NCBI GenBank assembly: GCA_937927445.1 | Contig: CALAOB010000098.1 | Location: forward strand, 6,515 to 70,514 | Reading direction: 5' to 3' | Origin: an uncultured Oribacterium sp. | GTDB taxonomy: Bacteria; Bacillota; Clostridia; Lachnospirales; Lachnospiraceae | Length of the DNA stretch: 64,000 nt | Shown here: one piece after another, positions 3,077 through 60,614 of the stretch | Layout of the letters: each line of letters begins with the position of its first letter | Numbering within the stretch: position 1 is the stretch's first letter | Position numbers and translations under genes: made by a program | The notes under the pieces: model-generated | Database searches by the model: none | What the model was told of the DNA's origin: nothing | Seen by the model: the letters and a program-made list of their open reading frames with translations, nothing else

Positions 3077-3251
3077 GCGCATGAATCCGTTAAACTATAG
3101 CGATTCGTCACAGCTAATATAACATATGCAAATAGTAAACCGATTAAGTTATGACAAAAACGAGATATTAGACACATTTCGATATGTCTATAAATATATT
3201 TTTGCAAAAGTAATGAAATATATAAAACTTATTTATATATCCTGGATTCAT

Positions 3252-17683: not shown

Positions 17684-17917
17684 TCAGTTCAGAGTTGCAA
17701 GAGTTGCACCTGACTCTACTGAATCACCAACAGAAACGTTGATGGAAGCTACGGTGCCATCCTGAGGTGCTACGATGTCGTTCTCCATCTTCATGGCCTC
17801 AAGTACGAGGATCACGTCACCGCTCTTTACAGCATCGCCGACGTTCTTCTTTACTGCGAGGATCTTACCTGGCATCGGGGACTCTACCTTTACGGCACCC
17901 TGTGCGCCGGCCGGAGC
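17684..17917 (-). repeat. biotinyl-domain coding repeat, copy 1 (paralogous to 18091-18324)
   Basis: The encoded 77 aa differ from copy 2 at only a few positions. The DNA has scattered synonymous differences but is near-identical in the 5' portion of the repeat. Confidence 0.85.
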
Positions 17918-18052
17918 TGCGGCTGGAGCCGGAGCGGCTGCTGGTGCTGCTGCAGGAGCAGCTGCTGCCTTCGGTGCAGATGCTACGCTGCCACCCTCTT
18001 CTACGGTTACGTCATAAGCGACGCCATTTACGGTAATAGTATATTTCTTCAT
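17684..18052 (-). CDS. biotin carboxyl carrier subunit (1.3S / MmdC-like)
   Basis: 122 aa with an Ala/Pro linker and a biotinyl domain carrying EAMKMEN. Confidence 0.9.
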   Translation of the reverse strand: MKKYTITVNGVAYDVTVEEGGSVASAPKAAAAPAAAPAAAPAPAAAPAGAQGAVKVESPMPGKILAVKKNVGDAVKSGDVILVLEAMKMENDIVAPQDGTVASINVSVGDSVESGATLATLN

Positions 18053-18090: not shown

Positions 18091-18324
18091 TCAGTTTAAT
18101 GTTGCAAGTGTTGCGCCGGACTCTACGGAGTCACCGACGGAAACATTGATCGATGCGACAGTACCATCCTGTGGAGCCACGATCTCGTTCTCCATCTTCA
18201 TCGCCTCGAGGATGAGGATGACGTCACCGCTCTTCACCGCGTCGCCGACGTTCTTCTTCACAGCGAGGATCTTACCTGGCATCGGGGACTCTACCTTTAC
18301 GGAGCCCTGTGCGCCTGCCGGTGC
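18091..18324 (-). repeat. biotinyl-domain coding repeat, copy 2
   Basis: See copy 1 (17684-17917). Confidence 0.85.
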
Positions 18325-19218
18325 TGCGGTCGGAGCCGGAGCGGCAGCTGCAACTGGTGCAGCGGCTGGTACCACGGAAGTTACGACCGGTGCGGAAGCG
18401 ACGGTCTCAGAAGCAGCTGGTGCGAAGCTGCGGGAACGAAGCGGACGTACGAAGAGACCATTCTGAAGTGTCGGTCCCGGTACGAAGCCATTGTCGCCCT
18501 GCTCACCTGCAGTATCTGCCTCGTATGCTGCGATCGCTGCGGCGATGACCGCCTGCATCACATCGTCCTGCTTAGCAGCCGGAGCCGGTGCTGCGGCCTT
18601 CGGTGCCGGTGCTGCAACCTTCGGAGCCGGAGCCGGTGCCTTCTGTCCCTTCGCCTTCTTCTCAAATACACTGATGTACTTGAACAGGGAAATCACCCAG
18701 GCGATGAAGATGAGAACGACGAATACGGTACCCATGCCGACTGCGAGGTTTGCGCCTGCATCCTCCATCTGCTCAGCGAGTGAGTAGTGCGGCTCGAAGG
18801 TCATCTCGGTCGTCTTACCGGTCAGCTCATTGAGGCCGAGGGTAAGCTTCAGGGTTCTCTTCTCAAATGTTGAATTAATCTCGATGGAATAGCCATCTTC
18901 TGTCTTGGATGCAACTGCATCGTCTACACTGACGAAGGCACCGAGACGATCCTTATCATTCAGATAATTGGTAAGGCCGTTGTAGGTGATTTCATCCTTT
19001 GTCTTGTATGCGGACTTGATCTGAGACTCGATCTCAGCATCGCTCAGAGCATAGATGCTCTGCTCTGCATACTGCTTTGCCTGCTCCTCAAGTGCGGACT
19101 TCACGGATGGGTCGATGGCCTCTACCGTGTCCTTCGTTGAGCTTCCGCAAGCTGCCAGTGTAAGAACGGAAAGTGCAAGAGCAAAACAGAGAGCAGCTTT
19201 TCTAAACCACTGTTTCAT
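18091..19218 (-). CDS. fusion protein: lipoprotein-type N-domain, OadG-like TM segment, Ala/Pro linker and biotinyl domain
   Basis: Start MKQWFRK with a GAGAGGAGA SD. An alternative ATG at 19233 overlaps the upstream stop. Lipobox LTLAAC. OadG-like helix VGMGTVFVVLIFIAWVISLF. C-terminal EAMKMEN. Confidence 0.8.
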   Translation of the reverse strand: MKQWFRKAALCFALALSVLTLAACGSSTKDTVEAIDPSVKSALEEQAKQYAEQSIYALSDAEIESQIKSAYKTKDEITYNGLTNYLNDKDRLGAFVSVDDAVASKTEDGYSIEINSTFEKRTLKLTLGLNELTGKTTEMTFEPHYSLAEQMEDAGANLAVGMGTVFVVLIFIAWVISLFKYISVFEKKAKGQKAPAPAPKVAAPAPKAAAPAPAAKQDDVMQAVIAAAIAAYEADTAGEQGDNGFVPGPTLQNGLFVRPLRSRSFAPAASETVASAPVVTSVVPAAAPVAAAAPAPTAAPAGAQGSVKVESPMPGKILAVKKNVGDAVKSGDVILILEAMKMENEIVAPQDGTVASINVSVGDSVESGATLATLN

Positions 19219-19232
19219 TCTGTCTCCTCTCA

Positions 19233-20588
19233 TTAAACGGTGCCACTCTTCTTGTCAGGTCTGTATACGCTCTTATAGCCGAGCATCTGAAGTGCAGCTG
19301 CGATTCTCTGTCTGGTCTCCTCCGGAGCGATGATCTCATCGACATAGCCGCGCTTTGCAGCAGCGAGTGCCGTGTTCTCGGAAGCGAACTTCTTCTCTGC
19401 CTCTGCATCGCCGTCAGCGACTACCTTGGCAGCCTGTGCAGCGTCCATCACACCGATCTTTGAGTTGTTAAATGCATAAACCACGTCCGCGCCGAGTGCC
19501 TTTGCACCGAAGCTGAGGCCTGCTGTACCGAGTGCGTTCTTTACAACGGTGATCATCGGAACGTCTGCATTTGCATAGGCATAAGCGAGCTTGGCAGCAG
19601 AGGTCGGCATATGGCTCTCTGTGCACTCTGTATTCTTGTAGGAAGTCACGTCAACGACCGTGATGACCGGAAGGTCATAAGCATTGGCGAAGGTAACCAG
19701 CTTGGCAGCCTTCTCTGCACCCTTCCATGTAAGTGCCTTCTCCTTGTTTGCAACGATTGCAACGGTCTCGCCACCGATCTGAGCAAAACCGGTTACAACA
19801 TCATGGGAATAGCCCTTCTTGGTCTCGATGAATACACCGTTATCCGCGAGCTGCTTCACAGCCTCGTCTGCAGACAGGGTATCGAAGCCGCTTACGGCAC
19901 GGTTCAGATCATCGATGCACTCGTCGAGTACGCCACCGTCCTCACAGTTGCCCGGAAGTACGGAAACGACCTTACGAATCTGAGCGAAAACCTCATCCTC
20001 TGTACCATCGAAGTCTACGAGGCCATACTCCTCGCGCTTTGCTGCCTTTGCGATCGCGTCATCCTTGTTACCAAGAACGGCATCCGGAGCATTGACATAG
20101 GCCTTTGCGCCCTCTGCCATCAGTACGTAATCGGACAGGCCGGCAAGAACGGTGAGTCCGCCACCACAGTTGCCGAAGATGGCTGTGATCTGTGGGATCT
20201 GACCGCTGGCCAGGGTCTGCTTCTTGTAGATGCGGCCGAGACCGAAAAGTGCGTCATTTGCCTCCTCGAGGCGTACGCCGGTGCAATCGAGAAGAGCGAT
20301 GACCGGAGCCTGATTCTTCATGGCCATAGAATAGATGCTGGCGATCTTTCTCGCGTGCATCTCACCGATGGAACCGCCGAGAACAGCTGCGTTCTGTGCA
20401 TATACATACACGAGGTTGCCGTCGATGGTTCCATAACCGGTAACAACACCGTCAGATGGTGCCTTCTTCTCAGCCATGTTAAAGTCTGTTGATCTTGCTT
20501 CCACAAGACGGCCAACTTCAACGAAGCTGAATTCATCGAGCAGTGACTGAATTCTCGTCAGAGCGGATGATGTTGACTGATTATCCAT
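19233..20588 (-). CDS. acyl-CoA carboxyltransferase subunit (MmdA / PccB / 12S family), short form
   Basis: 451 aa. The carboxyl-transferase pattern GTIDGNLVYVYAQNAAVLGGSIGEMHARKI...IFGNCGGGL matches the family. ATGGAGGA SD upstream. Confidence 0.8.
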   Translation of the reverse strand: MDNQSTSSALTRIQSLLDEFSFVEVGRLVEARSTDFNMAEKKAPSDGVVTGYGTIDGNLVYVYAQNAAVLGGSIGEMHARKIASIYSMAMKNQAPVIALLDCTGVRLEEANDALFGLGRIYKKQTLASGQIPQITAIFGNCGGGLTVLAGLSDYVLMAEGAKAYVNAPDAVLGNKDDAIAKAAKREEYGLVDFDGTEDEVFAQIRKVVSVLPGNCEDGGVLDECIDDLNRAVSGFDTLSADEAVKQLADNGVFIETKKGYSHDVVTGFAQIGGETVAIVANKEKALTWKGAEKAAKLVTFANAYDLPVITVVDVTSYKNTECTESHMPTSAAKLAYAYANADVPMITVVKNALGTAGLSFGAKALGADVVYAFNNSKIGVMDAAQAAKVVADGDAEAEKKFASENTALAAAKRGYVDEIIAPEETRQRIAAALQMLGYKSVYRPDKKSGTV

Positions 20589-31937: not shown

Positions 31938-31976
31938 TGGCCCGGCAGTGGACTCCGTGACCGATCACGCATTTCG
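31938..31976 (+). repeat. solo arm of the palindrome sub-family represented by element D
   Basis: ggcccggcagtggactccgtgaccgatcacgcatttcg closely matches the reverse complement of D's right arm (ggccggcggtggactttgtgaccgatcacgcatttcg). Confidence 0.7.
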
Positions 31977-32001
31977 ATAGCGATGGAAAATCAAACAATC
32001 C

Positions 32002-32219
32002 GGCAGAGGCTCGTCTTCAGAGCCTGGTCGCACGAGTCGTAAGAATCTAAAACAGGACCCTTAAGAGGCACTAGGCCCTCTGCAAACGACGGAGTTTCCT
32101 TTTATGGAAACTCCGTGTTACAGAGGGGAACAAGGAAAAATTACTCCAAGTGCCTCTAAAGGGTCCTGTTTTGATTCTTATCTTCCTCGGCTCTAAGGTT
32201 CTGTAGACGAGTCTCGGCC
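32002..32219 (+). repeat. long imperfect palindrome, copy A (about 218 bp)
   Basis: Arms pair along almost the full length. Shares its core and one-sided bulge with copies B and C. Confidence 0.85.
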
Positions 32220-32303
32220 ATGATCGTTATGATACCATCCGCAACAGGAATGCGCATCCTGCAAATCTGTCTCTATCGTCCATCCGTGTAATCTTTACGC
32301 CAT

Positions 32304-32339
32304 AAAACAAAAAAGAACCGATTCCATCGAATCGATTCT
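32304..32339 (-). terminator. rho-independent terminator after tRNA-Leu
   Basis: AGAAUCGAUUC-GAUG-GAAUCGGUUCU followed by UUUUUGUUUU. Confidence 0.8.
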
Positions 32340-32343
32340 TTCA

Positions 32344-32426
32344 TGCGGAAGAAGGGATTTGAACCCTCAAGAGTGTAACCTCACACGGACCTGAACCGTG
32401 CGCGTCTGCCGTTCCGCCACTTCCGC
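32344..32426 (-). tRNA. trnL: tRNA-Leu (anticodon CAG), long variable arm, no encoded CCA
   Basis: Acceptor GCGGAAG/CTTCCGC, anticodon stem CACGG/CCGTG with loop UUCAGGU, T-loop GGTTCAAATCC. Confidence 0.9.
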
Positions 32427-32436
32427 GAACTCGTAT

Positions 32437-32465
32437 ATAATAGCATGATGATATGGGTTCGTCAA
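32437..32465 (-). promoter_or_regulatory. sigma-A promoter of tRNA-Leu (TTGACG-17-TATTAT)
   Basis: Hexamers with a 17-nt spacer, 10 nt upstream of the mature 5' end. Confidence 0.65.
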
Positions 32466-32577
32466 CAACTATTTTTCACTTTTTCAGAATAATTTTGACC
32501 TGATTTCGAACGTTTTCGAAGCACTGACTCAGCCAGCCATAATTATGCTTTCACCATACTCGGAATGCCAGATTACA

Positions 32578-32809
32578 GTGCAGAGGCCGGCGGTGAGGCT
32601 CTGTGACCGTAGAGCATTTCGATGTCTGTCCCAGGCGTTCTGCTAGGGGCGTCCCAATGTCCTATGTGCGCCCGAATTGTCTGAGGTCTGTTTTCCCATC
32701 AGGAAAACAGGCCGAGTATCGGGCGCTGGTTTGACGCCCCTTGCAGAAAGCGTGGTTGACAGACCCGAAATGCGTGATCGGTCACAAAGTCCACCGCCGG
32801 CCTCTTCAC
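32578..32809. repeat. long imperfect palindrome, copy D (about 232 bp, divergent sub-family)
   Basis: Terminal arms gtgcagaggccggcggtg / caccgccggcctcttcac. Nested stems aggggcgtc/gacgcccct and gcgcccga/tcgggcgc. Apical stem ctgttttcc/ggaaaacag. Confidence 0.8.
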
Positions 32810-42521: not shown

Positions 42522-42571
42522 CGTTTTATCCTCGCTCCGCGCATTATATCATATGTCCGGGCATGATAAAA

Positions 42572-42794
42572 GTCCCGGAGAGTCGTCATTGAAAACACAG
42601 TACTACGAGTTCGGAAGACTCTAAAATTGTCCCCTTAAGAACCAGTAGGCTCTCTGCAAACGACGGAGTTTTCTTTAGGAAAACTCCGTGTTGCAGAGAG
42701 TGCTAAGGAAAAATTACTCCAACTGGTTCTAAGGGGGACAATTTTGATTCTTCACGAACTCTACGTATGGCTTTCAATGACGACTCTCCGGGAC
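42572..42794 (+). repeat. long imperfect palindrome, copy B (about 223 bp)
   Basis: Terminal arms gtcccggagagtcgtcattgaaa / tttcaatgacgactctccgggac are perfect complements. Same core and bulge as copy A. Confidence 0.9.
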
Positions 42795-42812
42795 TTTATA
42801 AGAACAGTCAAA

Positions 42813-44132
42813 TCATTTCGCGCTCATGACGAACATTTTATAAATAGCACGGATGGCCTTCTCGAAGTCCTCGTTCCGTACACCGATGATGATGTTGTAC
42901 TCGCTGGAGCCCTGGTCGATCATCTTGATGTTGATGTACTCATGGGCGAGCGCAGAGAACACTCTGCCGGCCACACCACGGGATGACTTCATGCCACGTC
43001 CGACGACCGCGATCAGCGCAATGTCCGACTCAAGCTCGATGAGGTCCGGATTCACGGCACGCTGGATGCCGTTCAGGATCTTCTGCTCGCAGTGCTCAAG
43101 CTCCTCCTGATGAATGACGAGGGTCATCGTATCGATACCGGACGGGATGTGCTCGAAGGAAATGTTGTTGTCCTCGAGGACAGAAAGAAGCTTACGTGCG
43201 AAGCCGATCTCCGAGTTCATCATCGCCTTCTCGATGTTGATCGCGCAGAAGTCCTTCTTACCGCTGACACCGGTGATGATGAAGCGCGGCTTCTTCAGCG
43301 TGTTCTGCACGATGAGCGTACCATGGTCCTCCGGACGATTCGTGTTCTTGATCTGAATCGGGATCCCCTCACGGCGTACCGGGAAGATCGCATCCTCATG
43401 AAGCACACCGGCACCCATGTAGCTCAACTCACGAAGCTCACGGTAGGTGATGTAATCGATGACCTCCGGATTCGGTACGATGCGCGGATCTGCGACGAGG
43501 AAGCCGGATACATCGGTCCAGTTCTCATAGAGATTGACGTGCTCCGCCGCTGCAATCAGGGAGCCGGTCACATCCGAGCCGCCACGACTGAAGGTAACGA
43601 CCTCACCCTTTTCATTGGCACCATAGAAACCCGGGAATACAGCATAATCGATATCCTTCAGTGCTGCACGGATACCCTCTTCCGTCTTCTGATAGTCACA
43701 GCTCCGGTCCTCCTTGAAGACGAAGCAGCTTGCAGAATCGATGAAGCTGAAGCCGAGGTAGGCTGCCATCAGCTTCGCATTCAGGAACTCACCACGCGAA
43801 GCCGCGTAGTCGCGGTCTGCACCCGCCTTGAGATCCTGCTCGATCCGATCGAAATCCGAAGCTAGGCTGAACTGGAGCTCGAGTCCATCGATGATCTCCT
43901 GATAACGATCCTTGATCGTCTGGAGCGTCTCCTGAAACTTCTTCTCATCTGCAACCGCATCCTGGAGACGATAGAGAAGATCGGTTACCTTCGTATCGCC
44001 GGAAGCCCGCTTACCCGGTGCCGAAACCACGATATAGTGTCTCGACTTATCAGAAAGAACGATGTCCTTTACTTTTCTGAACTGTTCCGCGGAGGCGCAG
44101 GAGCTTCCGCCAAATTTTGCAACCTTGATCAT
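42813..44132 (-). CDS. aspartate kinase
   Basis: 439 aa. N-terminus MIKVAKFGGSS, with C-terminal ACT domains. Confidence 0.92.
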   Translation of the reverse strand: MIKVAKFGGSSCASAEQFRKVKDIVLSDKSRHYIVVSAPGKRASGDTKVTDLLYRLQDAVADEKKFQETLQTIKDRYQEIIDGLELQFSLASDFDRIEQDLKAGADRDYAASRGEFLNAKLMAAYLGFSFIDSASCFVFKEDRSCDYQKTEEGIRAALKDIDYAVFPGFYGANEKGEVVTFSRGGSDVTGSLIAAAEHVNLYENWTDVSGFLVADPRIVPNPEVIDYITYRELRELSYMGAGVLHEDAIFPVRREGIPIQIKNTNRPEDHGTLIVQNTLKKPRFIITGVSGKKDFCAINIEKAMMNSEIGFARKLLSVLEDNNISFEHIPSGIDTMTLVIHQEELEHCEQKILNGIQRAVNPDLIELESDIALIAVVGRGMKSSRGVAGRVFSALAHEYINIKMIDQGSSEYNIIIGVRNEDFEKAIRAIYKMFVMSAK

Positions 44133-44250: not shown

Positions 44251-44485
44251 TGAAGAAGGCCCGGAGGATCGACGACCGAAGCCATACGTAGAGACCGTGT
44301 AAAATCAAGCCGGGTCCCCTTAGCGGCACTTGGTACTATTTTCCTTAGCACCCTCTGCAACGCTGAGTTTTCATAAAGAAAACTCAGCGATTGCAGAGGG
44401 CCTAGTGCCGCTTAGGGTCCCCGGCTTAGATTTTACCAGTCTCGGAGTACTGTGCTTCGGTTGACGATCCTCCGGGCCTTCTTCA
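44251..44485 (-). repeat. long imperfect palindrome, copy C (about 235 bp, inverted relative to A and B)
   Basis: Terminal arms tgaagaaggcccggaggatcg / cgatcctccgggccttcttca are perfect complements. The reverse complement of the core aligns with A and B, including the aaggaaaa bulge. Confidence 0.9.
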
Positions 44486-44502: not shown

Positions 44503-45846
44503 TTATTCATTTCGAATCGCCGCCAGCGGACTCAGCTTCATCGCGCGCGCCGCCGGAACGTAGCCCGCGATCGTGCCGACCGCGATGGCGAAGCCGATCG
44601 CGAAGGCCGCGAGCCAGAACGGAATACTGGACAGACTGCCCATCGAGCCCGAGCCGAACATCATGGACCCGGCATTTTTCGTAAAGAAATTGATGATATA
44701 CGAAATCAGATAGCTGACCGTGAGTCCCGCAACGCCGCCCATGAGCCCGATCATACCGGACTCACAAAGGAACATGTTCCGTATATCCGGCATCGCACAG
44801 CCCAGCACCTTCATCACACCGATCTCCTTCGTCCGCTCATAGATCGACATCATCATAGTATTCATGATACCGATCGCCGCGACGAGCAGCGATACGCCAC
44901 CGATGCCGCCCAGCACGAGCTGCACCATATTGAGCTGCTGCTGTGCCTGCTTCAGCCACTCCATACTGGAGCTCACACTGAAGCCCATGTCCGAGATCTG
45001 CTTCTGCACCGCGCTGACATTATCCATATCATCGACGAACACATAGACGTTATTGTAGACATAGTACGGATACGGCTTCCCGTTTTTATTCGTTCTCGGA
45101 TTCGGCACCAGCGCCTTCTTGTAGATCTTCTTCAGAAAACGCTTCAGGCTGTCGATGTCGGTGTAGACATTGTACGAGCCATCCGACCAGTCCTCGGCAC
45201 CGCCCTTCATGATACCGGCAATCGGGAAGATGTACTTTTTCTGCTTCGGTTCCTGCGTACTGCCCTCACTGCTCTGTGTTCCCTGCGAGAGGCTCGACTG
45301 CGGGAAGGTGATGAATACCGTATCCTTCTCCGGATCGATCTCGACGTTTTCCCAGGTTTTCTGCTTATAGAAGCTGCTGTACAAGATCTGATTACCGTAG
45401 AGGAGCTCCAGCGTATCCGAGTTCGCCGCCGGCAGATGTCCGCCGTCCCGGAGCTCGAGTTGCCGGAGATAATCCTGGGTGACACCCACGATGCTGAAGG
45501 TGCCGCTGATGCCCTTGCACTTTGCCTCGATATTCACCTCGATGGACGGGCTCACGCCGGTCACATGAGGAATATGCTTAAAGCTCTCCACAGTCTCATC
45601 GGTCAGCATCATGGACTGGTTGCCATTCGTACCGCCGCCATAGCCGCCCTCGTATACATCGATGCGGGTCAGCGAGCCCATGCTTTGGTAGGACTTCAGC
45701 ATCATCGCACTCATGCCGATGCCGAGACTCACCATGACCACGATGGACGCCGTACCGATCGCGACGCCGAGGACCGTGAGTACCGTCCTCATCTTCCGTC
45801 GCTTCAGGTTACTCGTTGCGAGCTTGATAAGATCAAATAGTCTCAT
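44503..45846 (-). CDS. ABC transporter permease, FtsX/MacB type
   Basis: 447 aa with an N-terminal TM helix, a large extracytoplasmic domain and a C-terminal FtsX-like 3-TM bundle. Confidence 0.88.
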   Translation of the reverse strand: MRLFDLIKLATSNLKRRKMRTVLTVLGVAIGTASIVVMVSLGIGMSAMMLKSYQSMGSLTRIDVYEGGYGGGTNGNQSMMLTDETVESFKHIPHVTGVSPSIEVNIEAKCKGISGTFSIVGVTQDYLRQLELRDGGHLPAANSDTLELLYGNQILYSSFYKQKTWENVEIDPEKDTVFITFPQSSLSQGTQSSEGSTQEPKQKKYIFPIAGIMKGGAEDWSDGSYNVYTDIDSLKRFLKKIYKKALVPNPRTNKNGKPYPYYVYNNVYVFVDDMDNVSAVQKQISDMGFSVSSSMEWLKQAQQQLNMVQLVLGGIGGVSLLVAAIGIMNTMMMSIYERTKEIGVMKVLGCAMPDIRNMFLCESGMIGLMGGVAGLTVSYLISYIINFFTKNAGSMMFGSGSMGSLSSIPFWLAAFAIGFAIAVGTIAGYVPAARAMKLSPLAAIRNE

Positions 45847-48714: not shown

Positions 48715-48847
48715 CGATAAATAAACGAGTTTCGTGGTCTTCATTATATGACAGGAATAGCTCATATACAATGAACGAATTTATGAACTCGCCGTCACGA
48801 AAATTAAGATTTACAAGCCACCCCTCCGCGGTCCCTGCTCAACTGTA

Positions 48848-50311: not shown

Positions 50312-50345
50312 CCCCGGAGTGCTGGCAACAGAGGCACAGTACTCC
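50312..50345 (-). repeat. solo fragment related to the outer arm of palindrome copy C; also forms a local hairpin after the pdxK-like gene
   Basis: Minus-sense ggagtactgtgcctctgttgccagcactccgggg matches the copy C arm ggagtactgtgcttcggttgacgatcctccgggc at 26 of 34 positions (hand count). Confidence 0.55.
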
Positions 50346-50363
50346 GGCACCCCATTCGATCAG

Positions 50364-60573: not shown

Positions 60574-60614
60574 GTAGTACTGTGCTTCTGTTGACGTTCC
60601 TCCGGGGTCCCTCG
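60574..60614 (+). repeat. solo fragment of the palindrome-family outer arm in the def-fmt spacer
   Basis: gtagtactgtgcttctgttgacgttcctccgggg matches the copy C right arm at 30 of 34 positions (hand count). Confidence 0.7.

Follow-up and report, generated by a model that had tools for sequence, protein, structure and literature searches.

The window, the whole stretch of 64,000 nt of DNA that was analysed, carries three homologous intergenic palindromes (copies A, B and C), a separate palindrome (D) and three short remnants of the same family as A, B and C (Table 1). Copy A lies, together with a tRNA-Leu(cag) gene, in a segment enclosed by a pair of 35-nt inverted repeats. Copy B is located 14-20 nt past the stop codon of an aspartokinase gene and is antisense to that gene. 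Copy C begins approximately 20 nt past the stop codon of an FtsX/MacB-type permease gene (44503-45846, minus strand; Pfam) and is also upstream of the aspartokinase promoter, with a promoter-like site at 44196-44168.

Table 1. Positions of the palindromes, family copies and remnants in the window
Feature	Position	Strand	Basis
Third D-type arm, 35 nt	31942-31976		91% complementarity with 32766-32800, the right arm of D
Copy A, 218-nt core of the putative MITE	32002-32219	+	hairpin z = -15.5; homology to B
D, separate 232-nt near-perfect palindrome	32578-32809		z = -14.8
Copy B, palindrome (core 42574-42792 and 5 complementary flank bases on each side)	42569-42797	+	hairpin z = -17.6
Tentative eroded outer inverted repeat of B (ACTTTATAAGAACAG)	42798-42812	+	sequence read against the outer repeat of young copies; weak
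Copy C, palindrome (core 44260-44476 and 9 complementary flank bases on each side)	44251-44485	-	hairpin z = -18.2
Deletion remnant, outer inverted repeat (ACAGTTGAGCAGGGA) and first 15 nt of the core (CCGCGGAGGGGTGGC)	48817-48846	-
Remnant, first ~34 nt of the left arm (CCCGGAGTGCTGGCAACAGAGGCACAGTACTCCGG)	50313-50346	+	79% match to the end of C
Remnant, first 33 nt of the left arm	60574-60606	-	93.5% match to the end of C over 31 nt, E = 5e-8

Palindromes and remnants in the window

Alignment with blastn gave identities of 80.5% over 149 nt for A and B, 77.7% for A and C, and 72.9% over 236 nt for B and C. Each copy folds into one long hairpin, with minimum free energies of -132.8, -140.5 and -171.1 kcal/mol for A, B and C, respectively, and none of 200 shuffled sequences folded as well in any of the three cases. 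The opposite strand of A folds equally well (-129.8 kcal/mol, z = -14.1). An apical stem-loop and a one-sided bulge of ~21 nt (TGCTAAGGAAAAATTACTCCA) are present in all three copies, and both features, as well as the compensated stems that a sequence-only reading of the window had listed, recur in the 86 full-length copies described below. The long imperfect hairpins, the stem-loop and the bulge of ~20 nt were therefore correctly described in that reading. Its termini, CCCGGAG...CTCCGGG, bound B and C but not A, the outer bases of which are GGCAGAGG...TCTCGGCC, and in young copies the true ends lie 20 nt further out.

Palindrome D had been grouped with A, B and C as one family of shared architecture. 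This grouping holds for A, B and C, which are homologous (73-80.5%), but not for D: MAFFT produced no convincing alignment of D with A, B or C, the nhmmer profile of the family did not match it, and approximately 1.7 Mb of related DNA contained no paralog, its sole occurrences there being at the orthologous site in two related loci, L095 and L107. Since D shares the architecture but neither aligns with the family nor has a further copy, we rejected it as a member. D is situated between the rplT terminator and the tRNA-Leu promoter, and its right arm is one of the two 35-nt inverted repeats that enclose copy A and tRNA-Leu(cag). In L054 (2930-3480), the sequence corresponding to window positions 31942-32484 is reversed relative to the flanking genes, and L107 (5680) lacks window positions 31939-31977, i.e. 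the first of the 35-nt repeats. The segment between these repeats is thus polymorphic for an inversion, through which the orientation of a tRNA gene changes.

The three eroded family fragments had been overlooked in the sequence-only reading. At the site of the fragment at 48817-48846, L110 carries a full copy (72-290), and the window and L109 keep the left end only, with different deletion end points. The fragment at 60574-60606 lies 12 nt past the stop codon of a peptide deformylase gene (Pfam).

Family size, intact ends and target duplications

We scanned one genome per species with a pattern derived from the apical stem and the bulge. More than 107 stretches matched and, among the matches listed, all were in nine Oribacterium/Lachnospiraceae assemblies, namely human gut MAGs, one MAG labelled just Lachnospiraceae bacterium, and the isolate Sow4_G1_1, with a lower bound of 3-17 stretches per assembly. 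An nhmmer profile of A, B and C gave 144 non-overlapping hits in the window and the retrieved loci, and 86 of these were full length. Because the retrieval pattern required CTCTGCAA, TTRCAGAG and AAGGAAA and so fixed those columns, the apparent extra conservation of the element's centre is partly an artefact. A search of Rfam at the gathering score returned two tRNAs only, and at an E-value threshold it returned only generic hairpin (miRNA-precursor) matches far under the gathering threshold. The element had no match in BLAST searches of plasmid and phage collections or in two pattern scans of viral contigs, and no relevant work came up in a search of the literature for repeats and MITEs of Oribacterium or Lachnospiraceae. 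The repeat family is real and abundant and, as the lack of a named family in the earlier reading had suggested, apparently undescribed. MAG contigs often begin or end inside the element, e.g. in L007, L016, L018, L019, L030, L033, L049 and L075.

The copies are intergenic, and the flanking genes are housekeeping genes (rplT/infC, serS, aspartokinase, fmt and def; Pfam). According to a codon-usage gene caller of our own making, the core starts a median of 22 nt past a stop codon, and the distance was 2-29 nt in 38 of 46 cases. When the copies were aligned with their flanks, conservation fell sharply outside CCCGGAGG...CCTCCGGG. No direct repeat abuts these ends in the flank alignment, and most old copies are without a target duplication; complementarity extends into flank positions ±1-6 in 55-74% of copies.

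The ends of the intact element were found in the youngest subfamily, in which copies at non-orthologous loci share 96-98% identity. These copies extend 20 nt beyond the core on each side, to a total of 259 bp (GTAACAGTTCAGGCAGGGGA, core, TCCCCTGCCTGAACTGTTAC). The terminal inverted repeats of the intact element are 5'-GTAAC(A/C)GTTCAG(G/A)CAGGGG(A)-3', with 5'-GTAACAGTTCAGGCAGGGGA at the left end. Its two arms of ~125 nt are almost fully complementary, so that either strand can form one long hairpin. The intact element lies between called genes and has no coding capacity. We considered a small peptide, since the apical loop of the consensus contains a 9-codon ORF (MKTQRCRGC), and rejected it; the ORF is without a ribosome-binding site.

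Perfect or near-perfect 8-bp direct repeats were present 19-21 nt from the core ends at eight independent loci: GTTTCATG in L106, where it was read directly; AAGTAAAC in L012/L094; AAATAAAG in L008/L047; GAAATTT(G/T) in L097; ACTTATCT/ACTTAACT in L081; TTTTTCTT/TTTATCTT in L002/L004; and, around mini derivatives, GTAAATTA in L005 and GTAACTTA in L048/L078. The mini derivatives are 40-51 bp long; in each of them the two outer repeats enclose a short centre (CCCGGAGG-like in L005), and the duplications are exact. The probability of an 8/8 match by chance is ~1.5e-5 per pair, and 17 symmetric 8-mers with at most one mismatch were observed, compared with a mean of 7.5 for random combinations of left and right flanks across copies. 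The duplicated octamers have a mean A+T content of 75% in a genome of 55% GC, and several include the stop codon of the adjacent gene. Since an AT-rich 8-bp target at a gene end often includes the stop codon, the core is usually found ~20 nt past it. L056 is an empty site that carries a single GTTTCATG, and eleven additional pairs of filled and short sites were identified.

Terminal inverted repeats, a target duplication of fixed length, multiple copies, filled and empty sites, and a small, non-coding body together define a MITE. It is highly likely that the three window copies are old, degraded representatives of such a non-autonomous DNA transposon. The mobile palindrome that the sequence-only reading had put forward is thus supported both by the census and by the filled and empty orthologous spacers with their 8-bp duplications.

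Maintenance of arm complementarity

Covariation was analysed in 50 representatives with pairwise identities below 92%. RNAalifold predicted 77 pairs, of which 60 showed at least one pair-keeping change on both sides. Standard pairs were formed in 96.5% of the stem cells, as against 81.1 ± 0.4% in shuffles, none of which reached the observed value (0/500). There were 561 cells changed on both sides (140 in shuffles), and the covariation score was 0.414, compared with 0.129 in shuffles and 0.05-0.08 when partners were slid by 1-3 columns. Within stem segment 9-23, the 86 copies comprise 79 haplotypes, nearly all of them perfectly paired. The compensatory changes first noted among the window copies are therefore a property of the family. 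Between orthologous copies, single-sided changes and compensated doubles numbered 58 and 12, respectively (~5:1, one replaced copy excluded), and the compensated doubles are still far above chance.

A transposase that binds only the ~25-bp ends does not explain how 77 pairs are kept across ~25% paralog divergence. The arms could be kept complementary by templated repair within the palindrome (quasipalindrome correction), by ectopic conversion with centre-biased tracts, by selection for a foldable element during transposition, or by selection at the RNA level. Centre-biased conversion tracts would also account for the outer ends eroding first. Arm-to-arm conversion had been named in the sequence-only reading as an alternative to a selected hairpin; in its arm-to-arm or ectopic form, it continues to be a viable account of the compensated changes. 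That the whole hairpin body of ~218 nt, beyond the transposase-binding ends, is selected as a folded nucleic acid seems to us rather unlikely. Such a body may act as single-stranded DNA or as a cruciform that joins both ends and is needed for mobilisation, or it may be a 3'-UTR RNA module that is tolerated or used by the host. If selection of this kind were at work, the family would represent a MITE with obligately compensating stems, the eroded minis of which are recruited as terminators, as at the aspartokinase gene.

A further possibility is that the core is a functional structured RNA, a 3'-UTR module whose pairing is kept by selection on the transcript, with mobility being secondary or the RNA riding on a MITE; it might be a 3'-exonuclease stabiliser, a terminator-like element, an RNase III substrate or a small-RNA precursor. 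The very strong covariation and the conserved asymmetric bulge and internal loops are in favour of such a role. The position shortly after stop codons also agrees with it but is accounted for by the AT-rich target that includes the stop codon. Sense copies are in excess (37:18 for all copies and 23:11 for representatives, i.e. independent copies with one upstream gene); however, this bias is weak and not significant (binomial p ~0.06 on independent copies), and one third of the copies, including B, are antisense. The stem pair counts are 3475 Watson-Crick, 61 G·U, 27 A·C and 71 other combinations. G·U outnumbers A·C among non-singleton changes (42 and 11), but it makes up only ~1.7% of the paired cells, 16 of the 61 are from one column, and among new mutations, taken as singletons, G·U and A·C are nearly balanced (19:16). 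In addition, no Rfam family matches, both strands fold equally well, presence differs between near-identical strains, and the copies decay freely. Promoter and terminator scans detected nothing inside the elements above chance, and just 9 of 46 copies have a T-run after them. Pairing shows no visible strand specificity, and the evidence gives no indication of an RNA function tied to one strand; the structured RNA that had been suggested from the window alone is accordingly improbable. A transcript containing the element would terminate in a hairpin of high stability, which makes effects on mRNA 3' ends plausible.

Site variation, transposase and related systems

Orthologs of copy A occupy the same site in L050, L054, L095 and L107, with flanks that are 92-95% identical. 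Since the site is occupied in four other species, A is an old insertion, and it is a member of a divergent subfamily. It has no recognisable outer inverted repeats and no target duplication. B and C are younger than A, yet all three window copies are classed as old; no target duplication or outer repeat was recognisable for any of them in the window, with the exception of the tentative eroded repeat of B. The GAACAGTCA motif beside B extends to 42815, where 42813-42815 is the aspartokinase stop codon, and it is a weak match to GAACTGTTA of the outer repeat consensus of young copies (...CTGAACTGTTAC), identical at 7 of 9 positions.

B and C are present in L108 and L111, in which the aspartokinase has 100% amino acid identity, and absent from L109, L110 and L112 (98-99% amino acid and ~93% nucleotide identity) and from L119. 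The C site is empty in the latter four loci, with a 24-nt stretch in place of the 277-nt stretch that comprises C and its immediate flanks. At the B site, L109 (7330-7375), L110 (6065-6110) and L112 (1865-1905) instead carry a 23-nt hairpin of a canonical intrinsic terminator, AAAAGTCCCGGAGG-GCAGCGA-CCTCCGGGACTTTTAT, whose AAAAGTCCCGGAGG-loop-CCTCCGGGACTTTT stem is made up of the end sequences of the element. A similar stem is found in L119 (80% nucleotide identity). The terminator stem and B are unlike each other at compensated positions, which one insertion with a later deletion does not explain. The hairpin may be a transposon relic that now serves as the aspartokinase terminator.

Remnants, half elements and H1-only minis were found among the related loci. 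Short CCGGAGG...CCTCCGG hairpins are rare, with three intergenic examples in 853 kb, all of which are explicable as internally deleted copies. In our reading, the short hairpins are internally deleted copies, some of which are now terminators and can be converted again by full copies; the element may also target short terminator-like hairpins directly. A copy in L039 (1023-1239) and one in L025 (56-273) have common flanks but distinct interiors, with differences at 12 compensated pairs and 12 loop positions. This copy was swapped for one of another subfamily, via ectopic gene conversion or re-insertion. Several filled alleles likewise substitute a whole intergenic hairpin rather than add to it.

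These replacements, and the stem that pre-exists at the B site and is similar even in L119, would be expected if the family spread without a transposase, with ectopic gene conversion or template switching turning short terminator hairpins into long ones where the two have the CCCGGAGG/CCTCCGGG stem in common. The 8-bp duplications at eight loci, at a fixed distance from the core, are nevertheless the signature of staggered-cut transposition, and the short hairpins that would be the substrate are rare. Existing copies may well undergo conversion, but this leaves new sites unexplained, and as the mode of spread conversion is very improbable. Insertion into the loops of pre-existing terminators, which the palindromic flanks and the B-site terminator had first prompted us to consider, was dropped as the main mechanism because young copies have outer inverted repeats and 8-bp duplications; it is further undercut by the few T-runs (9 of 46 copies) and by the rarity of short CCGGAGG hairpins.

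There is very little to recommend a REP/REPIN-type element, i.e. an inverted-palindrome doublet spread by the single-strand endonuclease RAYT (TnpA-REP): the family resembles REP, BIME and REPIN sequences in being multi-copy, intergenic hairpin repeats after genes, with compensated stems, singlet (half) and doublet forms, some terminator-like derivatives and mostly no target duplication in old copies, but young copies are flanked by 8-bp target duplications and end in classical terminal inverted repeats, the unit is 259 bp long as against ~20-40 bp for REP and ~100 bp for REPIN, and inspection of the consensus revealed, at the foot of the hairpin, no GTAG or CGTC tag of the kind described for REP superfamilies (PMC3733652). 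A transposase or RAYT gene matched to the CCCGGAG termini, which the sequence-only reading had proposed to look for, was not seen in crude motif screens of ~1.7 Mb of related loci, and a crude regex for the HUH/Y1 motif pair was likewise negative there. Integron attC sites were rejected, given that the ends GTAACAGTTCAG/CTGAACTGTTAC do not fit R''/R' core sites (RYYYAAC...GTTRRRY) and that the copies are scattered among housekeeping genes, in contrast to same-orientation cassette arrays.

For the MITE reading, the ends of the element indicate a candidate transposase. Members of the IS66 family have inverted repeats of 20-30 bp starting with GTAAGCG, and 8-bp direct repeats are characteristic of them (PMC11946415); a conserved terminal repeat of the family is GTAACCGTCCGGGCA (PMC12888890). 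The MITE end GTAACCGTTCAGGCA is identical to GTAACCGTCCGGGCA at 13 of 15 positions, and two IS66-family repeats from PMC12888890 match each other at 12 of 15. As far as can be judged from the sequences of the ends and the 8-bp duplication, an IS66-type transposase or parent is most likely and provides a good lead. No transposase was found beside the copies or in the ~1.7 Mb of related loci, which are a few percent of each genome. Clustering of 689 neighbouring proteins gave ortholog groups only and no partner gene, and a 482-aa ORF beside L097, which was considered as a partner, is a MatE transporter. Screens of the same ~1.7 Mb for IS66 motifs, like those for HUH/Y1, were negative with crude regexes, and no IS-sized pair of terminal repeats with a target duplication was present in the related loci.

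We propose that a DDE transposase supplied in trans, with the IS66 family as its likeliest source, binds the GTAA... ends and mobilises the element. The copies themselves show that insertion is into AT-rich 8-bp targets, which become duplicated and which in a 55% GC genome are mostly gene ends, and that the outer 20 nt erode after insertion. Internal deletions give rise to mini-hairpins, half elements and end fragments, some of which resemble ordinary terminators, and the interior at some sites has been replaced by that of another copy.

ERIC/IRU, YPAL, Correia (CREE), RUP and BOX elements are intergenic imperfect palindromes of 100-170 bp in transcribed 3' regions, with compensated stems and with copy sets that vary between strains. 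The present family resembles them in being an intergenic imperfect palindrome with compensated stems and strain-variable copies; however, it has no sequence similarity to this class, occurs in another host clade, is longer and forms a far more complete hairpin. The target duplication of Correia and RUP elements is TA, whereas here it is 8 bp and AT-rich. With the IS66 family (IS66 and ISBst12 groups), the element shares a repeat that starts with GTAA, the 13/15 match to GTAACCGTCCGGGCA and the 8-bp duplication, but it is without transposase genes. Bacterial IS-derived MITEs (e.g. MITEPsy1, PMC3189936) are likewise short, non-coding and multi-copy, with terminal inverted repeats and a duplication of fixed length; their presence differs from one relative to the next, and they are presumed to be mobilised in trans. 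Unlike these MITEs, in which the repeats are ~20-30-bp ends only, nearly all of the 259 bp here is one palindrome (77 pairs), and arm complementarity is kept across ~25% paralog divergence. The family thus belongs to a familiar class, as a MITE that is probably related to IS66, and is not a new kind of system.

The family is an abundant repeat in a human and pig gut Lachnospiraceae clade that is known mostly from metagenome assemblies, and it breaks such assemblies. Its location directly after housekeeping genes and its variation between near-identical strains make it relevant to strain typing and 3'-end annotation. Since mini-derivatives resemble ordinary terminators, some "terminators" in these genomes may be transposon relics. 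Comprising over 80 copies that have 77 pairs and diverge by ~25%, the family also provides a clean natural data set on the maintenance of palindrome arms, in which the general question of palindrome stability, through templated repair, conversion or selection, can be addressed.

Two further repeats were observed in the window. A 24-nt inverted repeat (2955-2978 and 3142-3165, 83% complementary) is in the 5' leader of a gene starting at 2969 on the minus strand; it has no Rfam match, one of its arms covers the ribosome-binding site and the start codon, and it may be a cis-regulatory leader. A 272-nt direct repeat (17684-17955 and 18091-18362, 85% identical) is in Ala/Gly-rich repetitive coding sequence and falls in the neighbouring genes 17684-18052 and 18091-19233 (minus strand).
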